From the UHGV virus genome UHGV-0293664: a stretch of DNA of 64,000 nt; one strand, written 5' to 3'. The position numbers and the translations under genes were made by a program. Source of the stretch: a virus. This document shows, piece after piece, positions 25,235 through 62,755 of the stretch; within the stretch, counting starts at the first letter, position 1, and each line of letters begins with the position of its first letter. Below the pieces are notes generated by a model. That model saw only the letters and a program-made list of their open reading frames with translations. It ran no database searches and was not told the DNA's origin.

Positions 25235-26716
25235 TTATTTAGCGTACTCGATTAATTCCACAGTTTTCCCAAAGCTCGGGATATAATTTTTATTATACCC
25301 CTCGGTGAGAACCCATAAAGTATCGTACTTTTTCCACTTGTTGTCAACAGCCTTTTGTTCAAAGTTATGCTCAAAGTATAGGTCGGTCAGGACGATGACA
25401 TCTTTTGCATTCGGTATATTGGCATCCAGATACTCGAACACGCAAGCAGCTGTTGTGCCCCATGTTGAGTGGACCTCATAGTTGATCATCTCATCTATGT
25501 TACCGCGAGTGTATACTTTAACCTCTCCAACCTCAGTTGACCAACAGAACATTGTAACCTTAAACTCTTTATACAGATTGCACAATCCGGTGATTTCATT
25601 GAACATTTTCTTTAAAGTTCTTTGAGAGATCGAGCCAGAAACGTCTAAAGCCACCACAATATCTATGGTGTTTTCCGGATTACGACCAGGAACAATAACG
25701 TGCTGGTTCTTGTTTATAGCCCCAACTTTTCGCATTGTGCTGGTCAAAGACCCAGATCGGCGACCAGGTTTTCTGTAGGTCAGTTCAGCCTTTCGTTTAG
25801 ACAACATGCGTTGCTTAATGATATCTATATAGTTGATTACAGGCTTGCCTCTGTTCTTGACAAACTCACGCACCGCCTCAGGGCAACGACCTCCGGAAGC
25901 TTGCATTGCTGCCTCCAGCATGTCACCAGAATCCTGCATGGCCTGATCTTTATCAGATTGGCTGATTACAGGTTGTGGCCGATCATACCCCATAGCCTTC
26001 CCAAGATCATCGCTGGTGCCACCGTTCCCGCTCATGTGATCATCGGTTTGTCGCTTATCTCCTTGGGAGTTATCACCTTTACCGCTCTTACTTTTACCGT
26101 TATTTTGATCTCTTTGCCTATCAAGAACTGCATAGACGTTCTCAGCAATCCATCCATGAAACTTCATGTCGCAGTAGCAGCTGGCTAAGAAACCAAAAGG
26201 CTTACCTTTTACGAACGTAGTGCTTTTCCCCTTCGGGAAGAAAACACAAGGGGGCTTGCTAAAGTCAACCACAAGACCTGTGTTGATAACGTGATCACAA
26301 GCAATATTGAACAGTTCCGGCTCAAAGCTTTTGCCACGGACCAGGTGATCACAGATAATATGCCCCACCTCATGTGACAGAAGGAAAGCCACCTCTTTCA
26401 CAGATTTGGGGGAATAGAAAACTTCAGCCATCTCAAACTGCTCTCCAGTTAGAGAGGCCTTGAGAATAGCCTTGCGTTCATCAGCCAACCCCATAATGAA
26501 CTCAGGACTGTAATAGATGCGTTTATGGTCGGTTGCCATGGTGGAGCACCATGTGTGGTTTTCTACGAACTGTAACCCTGACAGCAGTGTGCCATAAAAC
26601 GGCAGCTTTTCAAGGAGATACATACGTGCAGCCTGTAACATTCTCAGGGCATCATCTTTCTGTGAGGCAATGATTTCTGAACTTCTGCTATCCATTAAAA
26701 CTCCAGAAGGGGCCAT
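25235..26716 (-). CDS. vWA-domain protein with N-terminal zinc-metallopeptidase motif
   Basis: 493 aa; HEVGH (HExxH) and VVALDVSGSIS (MIDAS DxSxS). Confidence 0.7.
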   Translation of the reverse strand: MAPSGVLMDSRSSEIIASQKDDALRMLQAARMYLLEKLPFYGTLLSGLQFVENHTWCSTMATDHKRIYYSPEFIMGLADERKAILKASLTGEQFEMAEVFYSPKSVKEVAFLLSHEVGHIICDHLVRGKSFEPELFNIACDHVINTGLVVDFSKPPCVFFPKGKSTTFVKGKPFGFLASCYCDMKFHGWIAENVYAVLDRQRDQNNGKSKSGKGDNSQGDKRQTDDHMSGNGGTSDDLGKAMGYDRPQPVISQSDKDQAMQDSGDMLEAAMQASGGRCPEAVREFVKNRGKPVINYIDIIKQRMLSKRKAELTYRKPGRRSGSLTSTMRKVGAINKNQHVIVPGRNPENTIDIVVALDVSGSISQRTLKKMFNEITGLCNLYKEFKVTMFCWSTEVGEVKVYTRGNIDEMINYEVHSTWGTTAACVFEYLDANIPNAKDVIVLTDLYFEHNFEQKAVDNKWKKYDTLWVLTEGYNKNYIPSFGKTVELIEYAK

Positions 26717-26728
26717 TGGCCCCTGTTA

Positions 26729-29048: not shown

Positions 29049-29405
29049 ATGTCTAAAGTTACGTATCGTGCAGCTATTTACTGCAATGAACACCCAATCA
29101 ATAATGATGGTCACTGCCTTTTTAAAGAAAATCAGTTGGGCTGTATTGTCCTCCCTGATGAAGGGAAAGGTTATCTGATTGCATTGACAGGGTTTGAGCC
29201 TGAAGCTTTGGAAGCCAATCTGGACTACCTGGTAGAAGAGGGTGCTGCAGACCTGGTTGCCAATGGCCTCTCCATAAACCTTGACGAAGTGGAGCGCTTC
29301 ATGGGCAATTACCGTGTAGTGCGTGAGTTTACTATCGAGGTGGAAACTCCAGAGTGGGGTAGCCCTGAAACTAATACCGAAGAAAAAGAAGAGGAGGTAG
29401 AATAA
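29049..29405 (+). CDS. Small acidic protein
   Basis: 118 aa; ATG 29049 with AAGGAGG RBS; Glu-rich C-terminus. Confidence 0.5.
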   Translation: MSKVTYRAAIYCNEHPINNDGHCLFKENQLGCIVLPDEGKGYLIALTGFEPEALEANLDYLVEEGAADLVANGLSINLDEVERFMGNYRVVREFTIEVETPEWGSPETNTEEKEEEVE

Positions 29406-29662
29406 TGAAAGTGCAGATTTTGACTAATGCCGAGAAGATGTTTATTGAAGATACACCTTTTGAAGCTGGTGAGCTACAGTTCGTTTATTTTGTTGACTTA
29501 GATAAGGTGTTCCCTGCACTGAATCTGGGTCTGGATGAAGTTCCTCATAAGGTTTTGTGCCAAGTTGTTCGTGCTTTAGCGGCAGATGGGGAGTTCCACA
29601 CTCTTGAAGATATCCAGACCTACGGGTATCTTGAACTACAACGAGAAGAAGAGGTGGATTGA
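29405..29662 (+). CDS. Small acidic protein
   Basis: 85 aa; TAATG overlap with upstream gene. Confidence 0.5.
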   Translation: MKVQILTNAEKMFIEDTPFEAGELQFVYFVDLDKVFPALNLGLDEVPHKVLCQVVRALAADGEFHTLEDIQTYGYLELQREEEVD

Positions 29663-30051: not shown

Positions 30052-30354
30052 GTGGCAAGGATGCCACTTAAAAGAGTAATAAGCATGTTATACCAGAAAC
30101 ACAAACTTTGTGCAGAAAAAGAGTTAAATTTTGACAAAGTTATCCACAGATATTGTTATGGGAAAACCGGAAGACAACTAAGAAGGTGTACCCCAACATT
30201 CTTTCACCCCAGTAGACGGCTAAGTCCTGAAGAAGCAACAGCAGAAAGGGTTGCATACAACTGGGAAGTTGTGTACGATATTGACAGATCCGATGTGGCA
30301 TCTGTTTTGGAAAACTTTGAAAACACTTACACACAAGTAGAGGACTTTTACTAA
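30052..30354 (+). CDS. Hypothetical protein
   Basis: 100 aa; start uncertain (GTG 30052 or ATG 30061); stop overlaps AAA gene start. Confidence 0.4.
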   Translation: MARMPLKRVISMLYQKHKLCAEKELNFDKVIHRYCYGKTGRQLRRCTPTFFHPSRRLSPEEATAERVAYNWEVVYDIDRSDVASVLENFENTYTQVEDFY

Positions 30355-31538
30355 TGTCAAGAAACGTATTTGAAAGTGGTCAAATCACTGTCCGTGAGTT
30401 GCCAGCTATCATTCAGTTTGCCCAGCGTCATAACCGATCTGTCCTGATTTTAGGACCAATGGGCGTGGGGAAGAGCCAGGTGATGAAGCAGATTGCCGAT
30501 AATATGTTCGGTGAGCGAGATGACAACCTGGTTGACGTGCGACTGTCAGATAAAGATCCTGCCGACTTATCTGGGCTACCTATCCCTGTAGAAGCGGATG
30601 GAACTACACGTACAGTGTTTGCAATTCCAGAATTCTGGCCTGCAGATCCAGACTGGAGCGGGATTATCTTTCTGGATGAGCTTACTCATGCAGATAACTA
30701 TCTACAAAAGGTTGCAATGCAGATTATGCTCGACCACAAGTGCGGCACCTATGCATTCCCTAAAGGCTCTGTTTTTGTGGCTGCGGGTAACCGTTCTACA
30801 GATGGTGCGGTTCTTTCGGCGCTCGAAGCCCCTCTGGCTAACCGTTTTATCATTGTAGAAGTTACAAGCAATGCAGAGGTGTTTATTGAGGACTACGCAT
30901 TCCTTAATGGGGTGCATTCCTCTGTAATTGGGTATCTGAAAAGAGTTCCATCAGCTATCGATAATTATGAGGCTATGGCTGAGATTAATTGTCCATCTTT
31001 TGCCACACCGCGATCTTGGGTTGCTGCATCTGACATCTTGCACGATTTTGACAGCGGTATTATTTCTGACGCTATGGCCCGTGTTCTTCTGCAAGGTGCT
31101 ATTGGTCACACTGCAGCGGTAGAGATCTGGACCTACCACACCAAGAAACGCAACTTACCGGAAATCGGTCGGATTATGGCAGGGGGTTGCAAAGAATACG
31201 TAGGTCCTAAACAGCCAGACATTTTGTGGATTCTTGGATCTGAAGGTTGTATCGCTATTCGTAATATGATGGAAAATGCAAGTATCTCCGACGAAGATCT
31301 TGTCAGCTGCGTGGCAAACTTCCTCGATTTCCTTTGGGAAAACTTCAAAGACGAGAACCGAGATTTTGTATTCTCAGTCTTTATGGCGATGATGAAACCT
31401 AATGCCTTAGGAAATGCCTTGCTTATCGGTAAAGGGCGTGACAAGATTGTTGCTCAGCTGATCAAAGCATACCCAAACCTGATGAAGATTGTAAAAGAGT
31501 TTGGTGAAGAGTTTAGCGCCATTTTGGCTAAAGCTTAA
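30354..31538 (+). CDS. AAA+ ATPase, MoxR/CobS-like
   Basis: Walker A LILGPMGVGKSQ, Walker B IIFLDELTHA. Confidence 0.7.
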   Translation: MSRNVFESGQITVRELPAIIQFAQRHNRSVLILGPMGVGKSQVMKQIADNMFGERDDNLVDVRLSDKDPADLSGLPIPVEADGTTRTVFAIPEFWPADPDWSGIIFLDELTHADNYLQKVAMQIMLDHKCGTYAFPKGSVFVAAGNRSTDGAVLSALEAPLANRFIIVEVTSNAEVFIEDYAFLNGVHSSVIGYLKRVPSAIDNYEAMAEINCPSFATPRSWVAASDILHDFDSGIISDAMARVLLQGAIGHTAAVEIWTYHTKKRNLPEIGRIMAGGCKEYVGPKQPDILWILGSEGCIAIRNMMENASISDEDLVSCVANFLDFLWENFKDENRDFVFSVFMAMMKPNALGNALLIGKGRDKIVAQLIKAYPNLMKIVKEFGEEFSAILAKA

Positions 31539-31547
31539 GGGGGTTGT

Positions 31548-31928
31548 ATGGCTAAAGTAGGTAAGCGGGGAAACTACCTGGTGGTATTGACCGAGGAGCC
31601 AGAGAAGGAGTACGAATGCAGCTCCACTTGCGTGATCGATATCCGAGAAAAAGATGTAGATGAAATCTGGTTTGAAATATTAGACGCTTGCGACAGCAGT
31701 GATTATTTCTTCATCTATGTCAACGATAAGGCTGGGTTCTTCCATGACGACGGAGAGTTGCCGTATGAAATCTATGAACTTGTAGAGGCTTGCCATCGCG
31801 GAGATGCGGAGTTGTTTGGCCTACGGCTGAAAAGCGGTAAATTCTTCTATCAAGATGAGTGCATGAATCTTCATAACTTTGTAGAGGGAACTTGCAACGA
31901 TGGAGAGATTTTGGCACACTACGATTAA
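31548..31928 (+). CDS. Small acidic protein
   Basis: 126 aa; Asp/Glu-rich. Confidence 0.5.
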   Translation: MAKVGKRGNYLVVLTEEPEKEYECSSTCVIDIREKDVDEIWFEILDACDSSDYFFIYVNDKAGFFHDDGELPYEIYELVEACHRGDAELFGLRLKSGKFFYQDECMNLHNFVEGTCNDGEILAHYD

Positions 31929-46137: not shown

Positions 46138-46392
46138 ATGAAAATTACTTTGAAGCCAGAATGCGTTGCAAATGACCGAGCTTTTAAAGATTGCACAGTC
46201 GGTGCAATTTATGAAGCGGAGTTTTGTGAGAACCCTCTGGTAAAAGCCCTTCTGGAAGAAGGGGCCCCTTTATCACAAGAAGAGATTGATGAGCTGGAAA
46301 ACTCAGCACAGTGCCTTACCTTTAAAGATGACGAAGGAGATTCTGTCTGGTGCACTGTTAATGAAGTAGTTTTTGTAAAACCTGAACATTAA
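46138..46392 (+). CDS. Small acidic protein
   Basis: 84 aa; AAGGAGA RBS; FKDDEGDSVWC motif. Confidence 0.5.
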   Translation: MKITLKPECVANDRAFKDCTVGAIYEAEFCENPLVKALLEEGAPLSQEEIDELENSAQCLTFKDDEGDSVWCTVNEVVFVKPEH

Positions 46393-49397: not shown

Positions 49398-49814
49398 ATG
49401 ACATTAGAAGATATCATTGTTAAACCTGAGAACTATGACCAATACAACCTGTCAACTCAATCTGTAGACCTCGGATGCGCCACAGTCAGTGCATGGCTGG
49501 TTAACGGAAAAGAGCTTGACGAGTGCCTGGAAGCACACATGTCGGTGAATAAATTTCTTGATGAAAATACCCACTGGCTAGAGGGTGCAGGAGTATATGC
49601 TTCATGGTTGGAGAGTATGGGATTCGACTACCAATCTGAAGAGGGGTGGTGGAGCTATTTAGCTATCTGCCCAGAGACGCTGCAATGCTTCATGAAATAC
49701 TCTGAAGATTTGGAGTACCGGGCGGTGGTTGATAGTGCTATTGCCCGTTATAGCCGTAAACCTTTTTCCCACGACATTAAAACTGTGGAAGAATTTGTTG
49801 AAGTTTTCTGTTGA
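49398..49814 (+). CDS. Hypothetical protein
   Basis: 138 aa; AAGGAGA RBS. Confidence 0.5.
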   Translation: MTLEDIIVKPENYDQYNLSTQSVDLGCATVSAWLVNGKELDECLEAHMSVNKFLDENTHWLEGAGVYASWLESMGFDYQSEEGWWSYLAICPETLQCFMKYSEDLEYRAVVDSAIARYSRKPFSHDIKTVEEFVEVFC

Positions 49815-50176: not shown

Positions 50177-50602
50177 ATGACCTATGAAATGCCAAAACTG
50201 ATTCGTGACGATGCCCAAAACGCCCACACCTTTATCATGGGCAAACGCATGGATATTATTTGTCATAAAGATTTCTGGGAAGGAAGTTACTTCACAGAGT
50301 ATTTTGGTAAACTGGACAATGGTCTGCTGATCCAGTTCTACACCGATGCGGAAAACAACATTCACTGGGAGTTCGAAACTGAAGATATCCATAAACTTTT
50401 CACCTTCCTCGGTATTAAGGTTGAGGCCAAGTTTGAAGAAGGTGAGTGCGACGATTGTGGATTCTATGAGGTAACAGATTTCTATCTCCCGAGTGGTGAG
50501 AACCTTTACTATGAAAGCCACTTCGGTAACTCCAATATGCCACAGTGCTGGACTGAGTTTTTTGAAATTGCGGAAGAGGAGCTGGCATACCGTGATTATT
50601 GA
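50177..50602 (+). CDS. Hypothetical protein
   Basis: 141 aa; GGAG RBS. Confidence 0.5.
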   Translation: MTYEMPKLIRDDAQNAHTFIMGKRMDIICHKDFWEGSYFTEYFGKLDNGLLIQFYTDAENNIHWEFETEDIHKLFTFLGIKVEAKFEEGECDDCGFYEVTDFYLPSGENLYYESHFGNSNMPQCWTEFFEIAEEELAYRDY

Positions 50603-52880: not shown

Positions 52881-52909
52881 TATTTTAAGTTATCAGGTTG
52901 CCAGAGATC

Positions 52910-52945
52910 AGGAGGATTTCTAAAATGGATTTCCTCCTTTTGATA
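52910..52945 (+). terminator. Possible terminator at operon end
   Basis: AGGAGGA...TCCTCCT stem with 15-nt loop then TTTTG. Confidence 0.35.
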
Positions 52946-53191
52946 TTTTACCTGCCAGGATATTTTAAAATCCTTAGAAAATCAGAAAATGGATCGAAAA
53001 CTAAAATGGATTTTTCAGGGCAGGCACGACGAGATGAACCACTCATCCTGTCGTTTGCACCATATTCCAGACCACCATTACAGATTTCCCGCACATGCTT
53101 ACATCCTTCTACTGGAACTTCCTCCGCTTGCCCTTGACCTTTTATGGTAATAATCCAACCACTATCTTGAAGTTGCGATGCAGCTTTTCAG

Positions 53192-53354
53192 GTACTCGAT
53201 CTGTTTTTCGTTTCAAAGATTGAATTTTCTGAAAATTTTTCTCGATAAATTTCTCAGTACTCGATCTGTTTTTCGTTTTCTGAATCGGATTTTCTGGAAA
53301 TCGTTCCGGCTCTCGACCTGAAATTTTTGGGGACGAAATCGATTTTTCGTTTTC
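53192..53354. repeat. Iteron-like direct repeats, three copies
   Basis: Repeat unit TCGATYTKTTTTTCGTTTTC at 53192-53214, 53257-53280 and 53334-53354 in AT-rich non-coding DNA. Confidence 0.7.
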
Positions 53355-53481
53355 AGAAATGGATTTTTAAAATTTCTATATGGGAATATTTTATGGGATA
53401 CTGTTTTATAGGAAATTGTTACGGAGGGTAATTAGCGTGCTAATTAAATTTATGAAATGCGAGGAGTTCTCATTTAGAATT

Positions 53482-53500
53482 TTGAATGATAATCATTCTC
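53482..53500. promoter_or_regulatory. Fur-box-like palindrome A
   Basis: TTGAATGATAATCATTCTC matches 15 of 19 positions of the E. coli Fur consensus; contains perfect palindrome GAATGAT-A-ATCATTC. Confidence 0.4.
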
Positions 53501-53514
53501 GTTTGCAGAATAAC

Positions 53515-53538
53515 GGGCACCCCCGGTGATTGTCTCCC
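53515..53538. repeat. GC-rich conserved element, copy 1
   Basis: GGGCACCCCCGGTGATTGTCTCCC; related copies at 53655 and, inverted, 62331. Confidence 0.6.
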
Positions 53539-53617
53539 GGCCCCTGTTGCCCCGGCTTGTTATTATAGTATCACACAGGACAAAGAAAGCAAGGACTTTT
53601 TGCATAAATTTTTAGAC

Positions 53618-53636
53618 GATAATGATAATCGTTCTC
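53618..53636. promoter_or_regulatory. Fur-box-like palindrome B
   Basis: GATAATGATAATCGTTCTC matches 17 of 19 positions of the Fur consensus. Confidence 0.5.
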
Positions 53637-53654
53637 ATTTCATGCAGCGCCCAT

Positions 53655-53692
53655 CCCCGGTGGTTGTCTCCCCCGTCACCGGTGCCTGCCGT
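53655..53692. repeat. GC-rich conserved element, copy 2
   Basis: CCCCGGTGGTTGTCTCCCCCGTCACCGGTGCCTGCCGT; reverse complement of 62331-62378 is near-identical. Confidence 0.6.
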
Positions 53693-53844
53693 CCTTTCGA
53701 TATGTATATTGTGCCACCTGGCGGGGCCGCTGTCAACACTTTTCAAAAAATTTTTCTAACCTGATGCGCTAACCGTTGCAACCTGGCGGGGCCAGCCTGG
53801 CAGGTCCGCGTTATAAAGTAAACAGCTACGGAAGAGGTACAAAA

Positions 53845-53994
53845 ATGAAAGGTAATGCTACTCGCCTGGAAAATGTAGTAATTGATGATACGGAAGCTAT
53901 CGCCCTGGTCGAGAAGGTTGAAACGGAAGCGCGGGAACATAAAGAAGAGTACGAAAAAATGGTAGTTAACCTGGCGGGGGCGATTCTATCATAA
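53845..53994 (+). CDS. Small hypothetical protein
   Basis: 49 aa from ATG 53845 with GAAGAGG RBS; first gene after the non-coding island. Confidence 0.4.
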   Translation: MKGNATRLENVVIDDTEAIALVEKVETEAREHKEEYEKMVVNLAGAILS

Positions 53995-54013
53995 AAATAA
54001 TTTAAAATAATCG

Positions 54014-54796: not shown

Positions 54797-54844
54797 AGAC
54801 ACAAAAGGCGGGAATATTTCCCGCCAACACAAAGGAAAAAGATC

Positions 54845-55449: not shown

Positions 55450-55478
55450 TTGACAAGCTAACCCAAATCGGTATACTT
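55450..55478 (+). promoter_or_regulatory. sigma70-like promoter
   Basis: TTGACA, 16-17-nt spacer, TATACT; followed by GGGAAAACTTCCC leader palindrome. Confidence 0.55.
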
Positions 55479-55528
55479 AAACACGTAAACGGGAAAACTT
55501 CCCAAAACACACAAAAGGAGAAAACACC

Positions 55529-55870
55529 ATGACTACTATGACCGCCGAAGAAAAAGCCCTGCAGATCGCCGCTCTGAAAAAACAGATCGCAGACCTTGAG
55601 AATAAGATCGATAACTTTGAAATCGACGAGGACAAGTACGACGAAAACTATGATGAATGGCTAGACGAGGTTTATGGCGAAATTATGATCGGAAACATTT
55701 CTTTTCTTCCGTCGCGTATCCTCAAGGAGTTAGATCCTATCGCTTACCGCTGCGGATTTAGCGACTACATCGACAGCCTGGATATTGAGGACGATGAAGA
55801 GTACCAAGAATTGCAGACAGAGATTGAAGAAGTGAAAGAAGAGCTTTCAAAGCTGGAAGAAAACGAGTAA
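55529..55870 (+). CDS. Strongly acidic coiled-coil protein, candidate DNA mimic
   Basis: 113 aa; runs of Asp/Glu (IDEDKYDENYDEWLDE, DIEDDEEYQELQTEIEE). Confidence 0.55.
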   Translation: MTTMTAEEKALQIAALKKQIADLENKIDNFEIDEDKYDENYDEWLDEVYGEIMIGNISFLPSRILKELDPIAYRCGFSDYIDSLDIEDDEEYQELQTEIEEVKEELSKLEENE

Positions 55871-55874
55871 AATT

Positions 55875-55919
55875 TATTTTTAGATGGCCTTGACTCCAGG
55901 GCCATCAATAAAGTAAACT
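55875..55919 (+). promoter_or_regulatory. Promoter with -35 inside palindromic operator, copy 2
   Basis: Near-identical to 55253-55297. Confidence 0.6.
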
Positions 55920-55960
55920 TTATACTGTTAACACTGAACTACTGCAAAGGAGTTAAAACC

Positions 55961-56206
55961 ATGGCAGCACTAATCACCAAGTATTATGCCCCTACTAACA
56001 CCAAAAGCGCCCGTATCATGGTAAAAGGCTTCGGACGTAAAAAGGTTTACACCTGGGATTATGCCTTAGATACGGAAGACAACTACACCAACGCGATGAC
56101 CGATTTTATTAATGAGCTGAACACGCGGATCTTGACAAATTATAAAATTACCGATATTGCCTATATAGGGGAAGGCGGGATCTGTTTTGTCGGTATCGTC
56201 AAATAA
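55961..56206 (+). CDS. Small hypothetical protein
   Basis: 81 aa; AAGGAG RBS. Confidence 0.5.
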   Translation: MAALITKYYAPTNTKSARIMVKGFGRKKVYTWDYALDTEDNYTNAMTDFINELNTRILTNYKITDIAYIGEGGICFVGIVK

Positions 56207-56281
56207 ACTATTTTTTCGGTGGTCCTGGCTGCAGGGCCATCTATAAAGATAATTTATTAACACCGTGAAAGGAGAAAGTAC

Positions 56282-56635
56282 ATGATCAGCGGGGCTAGTT
56301 TTATTATTGGCGCTATTGCTACGGCTTTAATTGTAAACAAGATCCAATCTAAAAACGAAAAAGATAGCAACGCGCTCACAGAATACCCATTTTGGGTATT
56401 CAACGACAACGAAGACTACATAATCAAGTACAAGAATGAGAAGGGCGACCAGGTAACACCGCGACCGATCCCGGCTTACAAAATGCAAGAAACACTATAC
56501 CGCCTAAAGGCTGGAGGCGCAAAAATCGTAGACTTTTGGGGATATGATTGCAAGGATCAGGAGGTTATAAAACGGCGTATCCGGGCGATTCAGGCAAATA
56601 TCGAGATCAGTAAGGGGGGAAGTTATGAAAATTAA
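56282..56635 (+). CDS. Small membrane-anchored protein
   Basis: 117 aa; N-terminal hydrophobic helix; AAAGGAGAAAG RBS. Confidence 0.5.
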   Translation: MISGASFIIGAIATALIVNKIQSKNEKDSNALTEYPFWVFNDNEDYIIKYKNEKGDQVTPRPIPAYKMQETLYRLKAGGAKIVDFWGYDCKDQEVIKRRIRAIQANIEISKGGSYEN

Positions 56636-56822
56636 TTTCGAAAAAATTGTAAAGCGCCCCCACGATTCCGAAGAGCTGCCGGAACGCCGCCAGCGCAACA
56701 ATAAACTGAATAAACCGAAAAGATTTGGGAAGATCTGGCGGAATCATTATGATCGTAAACTGCCTGGCCTACTCTTGGAACGTGAACGACAGGCGGAACG
56801 ATACCGCCACAAAGGCAAATAA
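56625..56822 (+). CDS. Small basic protein
   Basis: 65 aa; Arg/Lys-rich; overlaps upstream gene by 11 nt. Confidence 0.45.
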   Translation: MKINFEKIVKRPHDSEELPERRQRNNKLNKPKRFGKIWRNHYDRKLPGLLLERERQAERYRHKGK

Positions 56823-56828
56823 CAACCA

Positions 56829-56858
56829 ACGCCCCGCCATTGTGCGGGGCTTTTTATT
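56829..56858 (+). terminator. Rho-independent terminator
   Basis: CCCCGC...GCGGGG hairpin then TTTTTATTT. Confidence 0.75.
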
Positions 56859-57002
56859 TCTATCCTACGAATAGCGCCCCTGGTTGGTCCCACAAACGCC
56901 ACAAAAGCCCCTACCTATGCAATCCCCTTTCTTAGTCTGAAAACATCGCCCAGGGCCGTTTTATGGTGTTAAAAATAGCATTGACAGTGATTTTATTTAA
57001 AG

Positions 57003-57031
57003 CTTGACACCTTGGAATAGCCCAGATATAC
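57003..57031 (+). promoter_or_regulatory. sigma70-like promoter
   Basis: TTGACA, 17-nt spacer, TATACT. Confidence 0.6.
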
Positions 57032-57067
57032 TAACCACATCAAAGCAAGAAGGAAGGAGTAAACGCC

Positions 57068-57328
57068 ATGCGTAAATTAAAAAATTTTGATAAAGTCGAT
57101 ATTGTCCTGAATAATTTTTACTACTGCAATAATAAAGCCGTTTGGTGGCGTGATAGTTCCACCGATAAAGTTAAAGCGCGCTTTCTCCAGGGGCACTGGC
57201 AAGGCCGCCCAGTGATTAAGATCCTGGGGCAATCGGTAGCGTTTAAAAATTGCCGCCGTGTTGATGACGTTGAAGAGATTCTAAACATTTTACGCCACAA
57301 TAATTTAAAAAATAGTGTTGACAAGTAA
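57068..57328 (+). CDS. Small hypothetical protein
   Basis: 86 aa; AGGAAGGAG RBS. Confidence 0.5.
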   Translation: MRKLKNFDKVDIVLNNFYYCNNKAVWWRDSSTDKVKARFLQGHWQGRPVIKILGQSVAFKNCRRVDDVEEILNILRHNNLKNSVDK

Positions 57329-57346
57329 ATCTTGATAAGTATACTT
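57318..57346 (+). promoter_or_regulatory. sigma70-like promoter
   Basis: TTGACA, 17-nt spacer, ATACTT; followed by GGCGGGAAAACTTCCCGCC leader palindrome. Confidence 0.55.
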
Positions 57347-57402
57347 AAACACACAGGCGGGAAAACTTCCCGCCACTAACAAAGAAAATAGGAGAAAATA
57401 TC

Positions 57403-58026
57403 ATGACCACCGTTAACATTACCGCAGGTTACAATTTATCTTTCGACGTGCTGACCGACGAACAAAAAGAAAAAGCTATTGAAATGGTCCGCGAAAGAGA
57501 AGAACACAGCGGAGAGGATTTTTTCGCAGAAAGTGTAATTGAATATTATAAAGAACAAGTTTTTCCAGAGTACGGCCTTGAAGATACCGAAGTACATTGG
57601 TCCGGATTTTGGTGTCAAGGCGATGGCGCGTCAATTAGTGCTGAAAATGTAGACTTAGAAAAATTCTTGCGTAAAGTAAAGGCCCTGACCAAGTTCCGAT
57701 CAATTCGTCACTTGTTCGGCACAATGCACGATGGCGAGTTATCAGCCAGTATTGAACGCGACAAGTACAGCCATTACAGCCATGAAAACACTGTAAACGG
57801 ATACATTGATACCACCTGGATAAATCTGACCGCCAAACAAGAAAACAAAGTGGAAGACCTGGAAGAGCTGATCACCGAGACGGCACGGGAGCTATCCCGT
57901 AAGGTTTACGTAGACCTGGAGGAGGCCTATCTAGAACAGTTCACTACCGAAAACCTGATCGATCTTATTAAGGCTAATGATTGGCGGTTTGATGTAGATG
58001 AACATGGCGAGATGACTTTTTCATAA
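57403..58026 (+). CDS. Acidic protein, candidate anti-restriction or DNA-mimic protein
   Basis: 207 aa; Asp/Glu-rich throughout; no confident family assignment. Confidence 0.55.
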   Translation: MTTVNITAGYNLSFDVLTDEQKEKAIEMVREREEHSGEDFFAESVIEYYKEQVFPEYGLEDTEVHWSGFWCQGDGASISAENVDLEKFLRKVKALTKFRSIRHLFGTMHDGELSASIERDKYSHYSHENTVNGYIDTTWINLTAKQENKVEDLEELITETARELSRKVYVDLEEAYLEQFTTENLIDLIKANDWRFDVDEHGEMTFS

Positions 58027-58504: not shown

Positions 58505-58538
58505 CAGGCGGCGGCATATTTGCCGCCGCCTTATTGTT
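58505..58538 (+). terminator. Rho-independent terminator
   Basis: GGCGGCGGCA-TATT-TGCCGCCGCC hairpin then T-rich tract. Confidence 0.75.
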
Positions 58539-62482: not shown

Positions 62483-62755
62483 ATGTCAAGCTGGATTAAT
62501 CAAGAAGTCGAATCACGTTTTAATGCTATTTGGGATCTCATCGAAAAAGAGGACGGAACATCAAGCCCCTACCTCAACAATTTGGAATTCCATTTTGTGG
62601 AAGCGATGAACGCAGAACATGATCACGAAGGTGGTGCGGATGAATTCGCTAAAGGATATGGCTTCAACAATGCCAACGAAATGATCGAGGCGGTTGTACT
62701 CCAGGCTGAGGAAGATTATCAATTAAAAACGCTTGAATTCTGCCGCCGTAAGTAA
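62483..62755 (+). CDS. Small acidic protein
   Basis: 90 aa; AGAGAGGAAAAC RBS. Confidence 0.5.
   Translation: MSSWINQEVESRFNAIWDLIEKEDGTSSPYLNNLEFHFVEAMNAEHDHEGGADEFAKGYGFNNANEMIEAVVLQAEEDYQLKTLEFCRRK

Follow-up and report, generated by a model that had tools for sequence, protein, structure and literature searches.

The described systems closest to the genes considered here are the Ocr protein of phage T7, the ArdA proteins of Tn916 (Orf18) and of plasmids, and the polyvalent proteins together with the establishment modules of plasmids and integrative and conjugative elements (ICEs). ArdA proteins are of comparable size to one of the two proteins described below and its relatives, which are about 200 aa long. 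T7 Ocr comprises 117 aa with a net charge of -28 and an isoelectric point (pI) of 4.05, and 34 acidic and 6 basic residues are counted in its monomer (PMC4872106). A preliminary description of a 64-kb stretch of virus genome UHGV-0293664 (hereafter the window) had singled out two open reading frames (ORFs), 55529..55870 (113 aa) and 57403..58026 (207 aa), as having promoters of their own and products dominated by Asp/Glu that might be DNA mimics directed against restriction enzymes or other DNA-binding defences. Both ORFs lie exactly where this description placed them.

We suggest that both proteins are stoichiometric binders or inhibitors of host proteins that act during the establishment of infection, most probably on targets in defence or DNA handling, a reading that we hold at even balance. 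We favour it because both are conserved, acidic products of host-type promoters with relatives at entry-phase accessory positions. Judged by sequence, the two proteins belong to two unrelated families, and they are likewise unrelated to every characterised DNA mimic. The existence of the genes is already known, since they are deposited as hypothetical proteins in many genomes. What is new is the placement of the 207-aa protein in a large family that crosses between kinds of genetic element and has no Pfam or NCBIfam model, and of the 113-aa protein in an immediate-early mini-domain family.

Two acidic proteins and their families

The 5 kb around both ORFs is 93-94.5% identical at the nucleotide level to more than 100 Vequintavirus genomes, including those of rV5, FFH2, Gotham, APECc02 and several BASEL phages, and by this comparison the window is that of a Vequintavirus, an rV5-like coliphage; the matched genomes belong to E. 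coli myophages of about 137 kb. Each of the two ORFs starts with an ATG 8 nt past an AGGAG ribosome-binding site (RBS), and homologs are found across the families of both proteins. The 207-aa ORF is under purifying selection, as its proportion of nonsynonymous differences (pN) is low against that of synonymous ones (pS), with pN and pS of 0.043 and 0.333 in comparison with rV5 and of 0.051 and 0.403 in comparison with Gotham. Taken by their sequence features and homologs, both ORFs are real, conserved genes, and their rV5 counterparts ORF192 and ORF185 both carry the annotation 'hypothetical' in the deposited records.

With 35 D/E and 10 K/R residues (31% D/E, net charge -25, pI 4.05) the 113-aa protein is the most acidic per residue (-0.221) among the approximately 99 ORFs greedily called in the window, whose mean net charge per residue is -0.012 (standard deviation 0.075). 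The 207-aa protein contains 45 D/E and 21 K/R (21.7% D/E, net charge -24, pI 4.54) and ranks among the top four by absolute charge and ninth per residue. The charge computation for which the preliminary description had called thus upholds the phrase 'dominated by Asp/Glu' for the 113-aa protein, whereas for the 207-aa protein, being only ninth per residue, the phrase is too strong. Per residue, several further small ORFs on the + strand reach about the acidity of the 207-aa protein (net charge -12 to -20, pI 4.2-4.4), and the pair are therefore not the sole small acidic proteins encoded in the window. The span 55529-58026 itself also includes four non-acidic ORFs (pI 8.6-10.8).

That each gene has a promoter of its own is confirmed by an exact TTGACA-16-TATACT site in front of either one (Table 1). 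Four exact TTGACA-N15-18-TATACT sites occur in the 64 kb against 0.03 expected, and all four lie on the + strand, in the interval 54.3-57.4 kb. The distance from promoter to gene is 50-60 nt in both cases, and the promoter of the 207-aa gene overlaps the 3' end of an 86-aa ORF. From its promoter through the leader to the RBS, the 207-aa gene differs from rV5 and Gotham at only 4 spacer positions; with hexamers, leader and RBS unchanged in both phages, this promoter is conserved. Like phage early accessory genes, the two genes thus have a strong, conserved sigma-70 promoter directly upstream.

The 113-aa protein matches phrog_9294 over its full length (E=3.6e-53). Its AlphaFold2 (AF2) model (mean predicted local distance difference test score, pLDDT, 88.9) is mostly helical and shows a mini-domain core made of a helix (residues 34-49), a beta-hairpin (52-59) and further helices (61-83), to which a coiled-coil-like N-terminal helix and an acidic C-terminal helix are added. 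We found 68 relatives and, as matches to a profile of the core of about 50 aa, a further 255, none with an informative source name. Conservation in the alignment of the relatives is confined to the core; the flanking helices vary, are absent or are swapped for zinc-ribbon-like tails, so that many relatives are without an acidic arm. The aligned members are nevertheless all acidic (pI 4.05-4.11, net charge -14 to -35). A Cys that seems invariant in the core is Q or R in podophage relatives and is therefore not essential.

In phage contigs, members of the 113-aa family belong to extended runs of small genes, and a terminase gene transcribed in the opposite direction often immediately precedes them. 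Autographiviridae encode them near the left end of the genome, as some of its first genes and within the first 2-3 kb; examples are ORF4 of Proteus phage RS1pmA (3156-3371) and gp05 of Providencia phage PS3 (2931-3131), both downstream of annotated sigma-70 promoters.

The 207-aa protein matches phrog_5162 over its full length (E=1.6e-86), and its AF2 model is compact, of alpha/beta type (pLDDT 85.6), with no match among the folds listed. An earlier word-indexed search returned close relatives only; an exhaustive profile search gave 5,376 cluster representatives at E<=1e-3 and 3,235 at E<=1e-10, typically of 185-215 aa. The family is acidic throughout (median net charge -19, pI 4.57). Over 78 members at 25-60% identity, conservation centres on two loops with the consensus S-G-F-x-S-Q-G-D-G-A-S-F (residues 67-78) and Y-x-H-E-x-T (125-130); acidic helix positions and a basic segment at residues 85-102 are kept as well. 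None of these 78 members is matched by a Pfam or NCBIfam model, and the Pfam annotations of family entries are empty, even though newer models such as DUF8033 are included.

Phage homologs of the 207-aa protein are encoded by the jumbo coliphages 121Q and phAPEC6 (about 57% identity), by SPO1-like phages and by phages of Klebsiella, Salmonella, Erwinia, Bacillus, Caulobacter and Acinetobacter. In a set of one genome per species, at least 362 bacterial loci encode a relative, with up to three copies per genome, and span Alphaproteobacteria, Victivallales, Dehalococcoidia, Spirochaetota, Saccharibacteria and others. The family domain also occurs inside a 1,479-aa protein that contains Fic.

Homologs on plasmids of Rhodobacterales and Sphingomonadales (hhalign probability 99.7%) lie in a cluster with the order SSB, DUF932, two RadC, DUF6878, DUF6915, a 139-aa gene and the 207-family gene, followed downstream by a variable toxin-antitoxin (TA) pair, a 1,400-aa methyltransferase/helicase, a toprim protein and DUF2493; the cluster of pCHQ1 additionally holds an ArdC-like zincin and ParB. 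Among the 80 best genomic loci, 59 have at least one cluster gene within 8 kb of the 207-family gene (methylase-helicase 44, RadC 37, toprim 31, DUF932 29, ParB 23, SSB 18, ArdC-like 8), and in 47 of the 80 the stop of the conserved 139-aa gene overlaps the 207-family start. Neither this 139-aa partner nor any other cluster gene has a homolog in the window. Settings usual for counter-defence and takeover genes are found for relatives in both families, in early arrays and at the left ends of T7-like genomes for the 113-aa family and in plasmid and ICE clusters and the giant Fic protein for the 207-aa family.

Table 1. Coordinates of the two genes, their signals and protein elements, and of related features (positions in the window unless a locus is named)
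Feature	Position	Strand	Remarks
Promoter of 113-aa gene, sigma-70 type, TTGACA-16-TATACT	55450..55477	+	11/12 consensus; corresponds to rV5 P192; annotated in rV5 and Gotham
Leader stem-loop of 113-aa gene, GGGAAAACTTCCC	55491..55503	+	about 14 nt past the -10 hexamer; weak (5 bp, -5.9 kcal/mol)
Gene for 113-aa acidic protein	55529..55870	+	homolog of rV5 ORF192; phrog_9294; pI 4.05, net -25
N-terminal amphipathic coiled-coil-like helix, residues 6-28	55544..55612	+	AF2 model; variable or absent in relatives
Conserved mini-domain, residues 34-83, YDxxLDExYG ... PSRILKELDPIAYRCGFSDY	55628..55777	+	unit common to 255 proteins, mostly of 56-93 aa
Acidic C-terminal helix, residues 90-111, EEYQELQTEIEEVKEELSKLEE	55796..55861	+	AF2 model; length varies or helix absent in relatives
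Terminator-like hairpin with T-run	56831..56850	+	would close a cassette of the 113-aa, 81-aa, 117-aa and 65-aa ORFs
Promoter of 207-aa gene, sigma-70 type, TTGACA-16-TATACT	57318..57345	+	predicted in Gotham; hexamers identical in rV5 and Gotham
Leader stem-loop of 207-aa gene, GGCGGGAAAACTTCCCGCC	57356..57374	+	8 bp, -14.6 kcal/mol, z about -4.5; 100% conserved in rV5 and Gotham
Gene for 207-aa acidic protein	57403..58026	+	homolog of rV5 ORF185; phrog_5162; pI 4.54, net -24
Near-invariant loop SGFWCQGDGAS, residues 67-77, between strands b2 and b3	57601..57633	+	Q72, G73 and G75 invariant in 78 diverse members
Second near-invariant loop YSHENT, residues 125-130	57775..57792	+	Y125 and H127 99%; T130 91%
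Terminator-like hairpin, 11 bp	58506..58531	+	after the ORF following the 207-aa gene
Further small acidic ORFs	29049-29405, 29405-29662, 31548-31928, 46138-46392, 49398-49814, 50177-50602, 62483-62755	+	net charge and pI as given in the text
139-aa partner gene, examples	L004 5589-6008; L007 9556-9975; L008 9376-9792		plasmids/ICEs

Possible modes of action

How could two unrelated acidic proteins serve the establishment of infection? Each gene would be transcribed by unmodified host RNA polymerase from its near-consensus sigma-70 promoter soon after entry of the DNA. In the 113-aa protein the mini-domain of about 50 residues would provide the specific contact, to which the Vequintavirus version would add the N-terminal coiled-coil helix and the very acidic C-terminal helix. 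Together these would give an Ocr-like charge of 35 D/E in 113 aa; it is plausible, and we propose it tentatively, that this acidic helical arm, anchored by the mini-domain, could act as an electrostatic surrogate of DNA. In the 207-aa protein the SGFxSQGDGA and YxHENT loops would form a specific docking or catalytic site. A family carried by phage genomes, by plasmid/ICE clusters and within the Fic giant protein would suit a role at entry or establishment in which the protein engages a host target that is itself conserved, and would suit generic mimicry of DNA less well. Because of its invariant polar loops and basic segment, pure DNA mimicry by this protein appears improbable. More generally, the conserved non-acidic motifs of both families point to specific docking or an active site over generic charge mimicry. 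In a more far-reaching version, which we regard as possible yet doubtful, the 207-aa family would constitute a general establishment or counter-defence factor, common to phages, conjugative plasmids/ICEs and the Fic giant protein, that acts on a conserved host target in a way unlike Ocr and ArdA, and the 'DPIAYRCG' mini-domain a widespread immediate-early inhibitor module, whose acidic arm in Vequintavirus would be an independently evolved, Ocr-like DNA surrogate.

In a strict mimic model the carboxylates of both proteins would imitate DNA phosphates and so block type I restriction-modification (R-M), bacteriophage exclusion (BREX) or similar systems in the manner of Ocr and ArdA. Ocr forms a homodimer that binds M.EcoKI, with carboxylates on its surface that match the phosphates of bent B-DNA. 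The 113-aa protein comes close to Ocr in length, net charge and pI (113 aa, -25 and 4.05 versus 117 aa, -28 and 4.05), has a predicted structure made up largely of helices, with long ones at the termini, and has relatives in the ocr position class of T7-like phages; moreover, both families are uniformly acidic. Yet comparisons of sequences, profiles and listed folds link neither protein to a solved DNA mimic, many relatives of the 113-aa protein wholly lack the acidic arm, and the 207-aa protein, besides its modest rank in acidity per residue, has a conserved basic segment and invariant G/Q/H/Y loops. Known DNA mimics conserve charge rather than such motifs. Of the earlier proposal that the two are DNA mimics, the conserved acidity and the Ocr-like composition of the 113-aa protein hold, while the expected resemblance to known mimics is not borne out in the sequence, profile and listed fold comparisons, and the non-acidic motifs are not what the proposal would predict. 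As an account of both proteins we consider strict mimicry unlikely.

The restriction phenotype of Vequintaviruses bears on this model as well. Bas57-59, with 9-15 EcoKI sites, plate with an efficiency of plating (EOP) of 0.06-0.83 on EcoKI and of 0.2-1 on EcoCFT_I (PMC8594841 S1 Data, S5 Table), and the Bas59 homolog of the 113-aa protein is 96% identical to it. On the same EcoKI host lambda vir, which has 5 sites, is restricted 40,000-fold (EOP 2.4e-5; PMC8594841). On EcoRI, Bas57-59 plate with an EOP of 1e-4 to 1e-3, and on EcoRV and EcoCFT_II below detection (PMC8594841). High plating on EcoKI and EcoCFT_I as against low plating on EcoRI, EcoRV and EcoCFT_II makes the escape specific to type I systems, and it speaks for the strict mimic model that this escape occurs despite the number of EcoKI sites. 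It speaks against it that phages of other groups escape EcoKI too, the phi92-like Bas60-62 and the Felix O1-like Bas63 reaching an EOP of 0.1-1.5 (PMC8594841). The escape would be consistent with these phages encoding a type I inhibitor of the Ocr/ArdA kind and does not assign such an inhibitor to the two genes. The authors of the BASEL study call Vequintavirinae 'exceptionally susceptible' to R-M and seemingly without effective protection, a statement less differentiated than their own raw data, and ascribe the EcoKI escape to rare sites (PMC8594841). Rarity of sites does not obviously explain it, as the Vequintaviruses have 9-15 EcoKI sites versus 5 in lambda vir.

Could the two proteins instead serve to take over the host and not be directed at defence, with RNA polymerase, proteins of the nucleoid (H-NS, HU) or the machinery of replication or division as the targets they bind? 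What speaks for this, namely promoters of early type and a place in arrays of small early genes, speaks equally for counter-defence. Acidic phage proteins with such host targets are known (T7 Gp2, T7 gp5.5 and SPO1 Gp46), and Ocr reportedly has further targets. However, the 207-aa family is common on conjugative plasmids, ICEs and chromosomes of many phyla, where a shut-off of the host would do harm, and this occurrence fits protection of incoming DNA better than host takeover, which we think rather improbable.

It is somewhat less probable still that the 207-aa protein is an enzyme whose acidity is incidental, with Q72-G-D74-G and Y125-x-H127-E-x-T130 forming an active site whose substrate would be a nucleotide, a signalling molecule or a protein. 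The near-absolute retention of Q, D, H, Y and T in the two loops across the 78 members and the compact alpha/beta model would suit an enzyme, and so would the occurrence of the module beside Fic in the multi-domain protein and, in one phage contig, near a gene for an Acb1-like phosphodiesterase. The net negative charge kept throughout the family is, on the other hand, more typical of inhibitors and immunity proteins.

Least supported, and very improbable in our view, is that the 207-aa protein is a TA antitoxin, the label that NCBI gives ('antitoxin of toxin-antitoxin stability system') to dozens of homologs from Rhodobacterales plasmids. These are true homologs, whose gene overlaps the conserved upstream 139-aa gene in the loci counted above and often has TA pairs directly downstream. 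But a search of the labelled plasmid proteins found no NCBIfam or Pfam model behind the label, the downstream pairs vary by plasmid and are complete in themselves (Phd, MbcA/RES, Fic/HTH), no recognisable cognate toxin gene is conserved in adjacency, and the phage gene, in whose window the 139-aa partner has no homolog, has a promoter of its own.

Several observations weigh against our preferred reading that both proteins are inhibitors of host proteins acting at establishment. The early timing of the two genes is read from their promoters, and sigma-70-like promoters are spread over the whole rV5 genome according to the authors of its description (PMC3606486). Our search of the literature found no time-course transcriptome of a Vequintavirus, nor any paper that ties either gene to a defence. 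Both families are classed as 'unknown function' in PHROG and have no match in Pfam, NCBIfam and PADLOC. The 80 best 207-family loci are phylogenetically redundant, coming mostly from related Alphaproteobacteria, and 21 of them contain no cluster gene at all; moreover, in pP97_c the cluster lies at least 11 kb from the relaxase gene, so that its placement in a leading region is no more than putative. Finally, any protection would be narrow because EcoRI, EcoRV and EcoCFT_II restrict the same phages strongly, and both the EcoKI escape of phages from other groups and the rare-site explanation of the BASEL authors count here as well.

Leaders, neighbouring sequences and linked families

The promoter array of the window has further shared elements. 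Stem-loops of the form GGGAAA(A/T)(C/A)TTCCC occur on the + strand at 54810-54822, 55491-55503 and 57359-57371 (three found, none expected) and start 12-15 nt after the -10 hexamers of three array promoters. Two of the three have an 8-bp stem of -14.6 kcal/mol (z about -4.4); that at 55491-55503 is weak. These leader stem-loops could be 5'-terminal stabilisers of mRNA or binding sites of a regulator. The hairpin at the far end of the region (58506..58531) probably terminates the transcription unit that holds the 207-aa gene.

Directly upstream of the promoter array, the window is poor in ORFs from about 52900 to 54000, which probably corresponds to the 'non-coding' box of the rV5 map (PMC3606486). 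This stretch contains 50-nt direct repeats at 53192-53380 with a spacing of 65-74 bp, a unit at 53485-53538 that is repeated at 53621-53672, and GC-rich 17-mers. It has no match in Rfam and could be an origin-like or regulatory region.

In a metagenomic protein (L094 1111-2049, P0127) a 207-family domain is preceded by a small phage domain, DUF8033 (PF26096), as an N-terminal fusion; elsewhere DUF8033 is encoded separately, by an 83-aa gene (L099 5128-5379) three genes upstream of a 113-family core gene. The three small families thus share the same early arrays. The contig of this 83-aa gene, an unrelated phage contig of 53 kb, also bears genes for a MoxR-like AAA_5 ATPase and a DUF2201/VWA-type protein, homologs of which are encoded in the window by the ORFs 30321-31538 (+; E=1.8e-17) and 25235-26725 (-; E=8.4e-13), respectively. 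In a phage-like contig of 112 kb, a 658-aa protein with a 207-family domain (L093 13380-14987) is encoded three genes upstream of a 535-aa phosphodiesterase with weak similarity to 2',5'-RNA ligase/Acb1, a candidate gene against CBASS (cyclic oligonucleotide-based antiphage signalling system).

Seventeen GenBank records (MG0656xx) named 'Campylobacter phage', most of them with C. jejuni as the host, show 88-97% protein identity to this region. Given the coliphage character of the region, this host looks doubtful, and the sequences may stem from contaminating coliphages.

Comparison with Ocr, ArdA and polyvalent proteins

If either protein does inhibit a defence, it would represent a new structural class among the few anti-restriction and anti-defence proteins. 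The 207-aa family would be the more valuable of the two, having thousands of diverged members in phages, plasmids, ICEs and many phyla, all of them unannotated, so that one experiment could give a name to many 'hypothetical proteins' encoded on mobile elements and account in part for the establishment of incoming DNA. Since Vequintaviruses are frequent candidates for therapy and biocontrol, knowledge of their protection from restriction, or of its failure, would also be of practical use.

Membership in the Ocr or ArdA families was rejected at the levels of profile, PDB and fold searches. Alignment of the family profiles A2 and A3 with T7 Ocr by hhalign gave probabilities of 0.1% and 0.2%, and phmmer and hmmsearch runs of both proteins and their families against all PDB chains at E<=10 returned neither Ocr nor anything informative. 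Among the fold matches listed, an Ocr-like fold is seen for neither protein, nor is there Pfam ArdA homology or the three-domain fold of ArdA.

The extreme acidity of Ocr is reproduced in the 113-aa protein and in part in the 207-aa protein. The 113-aa protein is nearly equal to Ocr in length, in its count of acidic and basic residues and in pI, is predicted by AF2 to be mostly helical, and is encoded behind a host-type promoter, with relatives among the first genes of T7-like phages, where T7 gene 0.3 (ocr) itself is found at 925-1278. It differs in being built on a mini-domain of about 50 aa that in most relatives stands alone without an acidic arm.

With ArdA the 207-aa family shares its acidity and its length of about 200 aa. 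Its members likewise occur on conjugative plasmids and ICEs in addition to phages, near other establishment genes such as those for SSB, ParB, ArdC-like proteins and methylases. The charge density of the 207-aa protein is lower (-0.12 per residue), and the family differs further by its invariant non-acidic loops and its basic segment.

The third comparison is with the polyvalent proteins and the establishment modules of plasmids and ICEs. From these the 207-aa family is set apart by lying outside the Pfam LPD and other polyvalent-protein domain models, which matched a single member (LPD39, E=0.008). What it has in common with them is that it occurs both as a stand-alone protein near ArdC, DUF932 and RadC and as a domain within a giant Fic protein, a pattern that Iyer et al. 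(2017) are said to have described for effector domains delivered or expressed at the entry of DNA.

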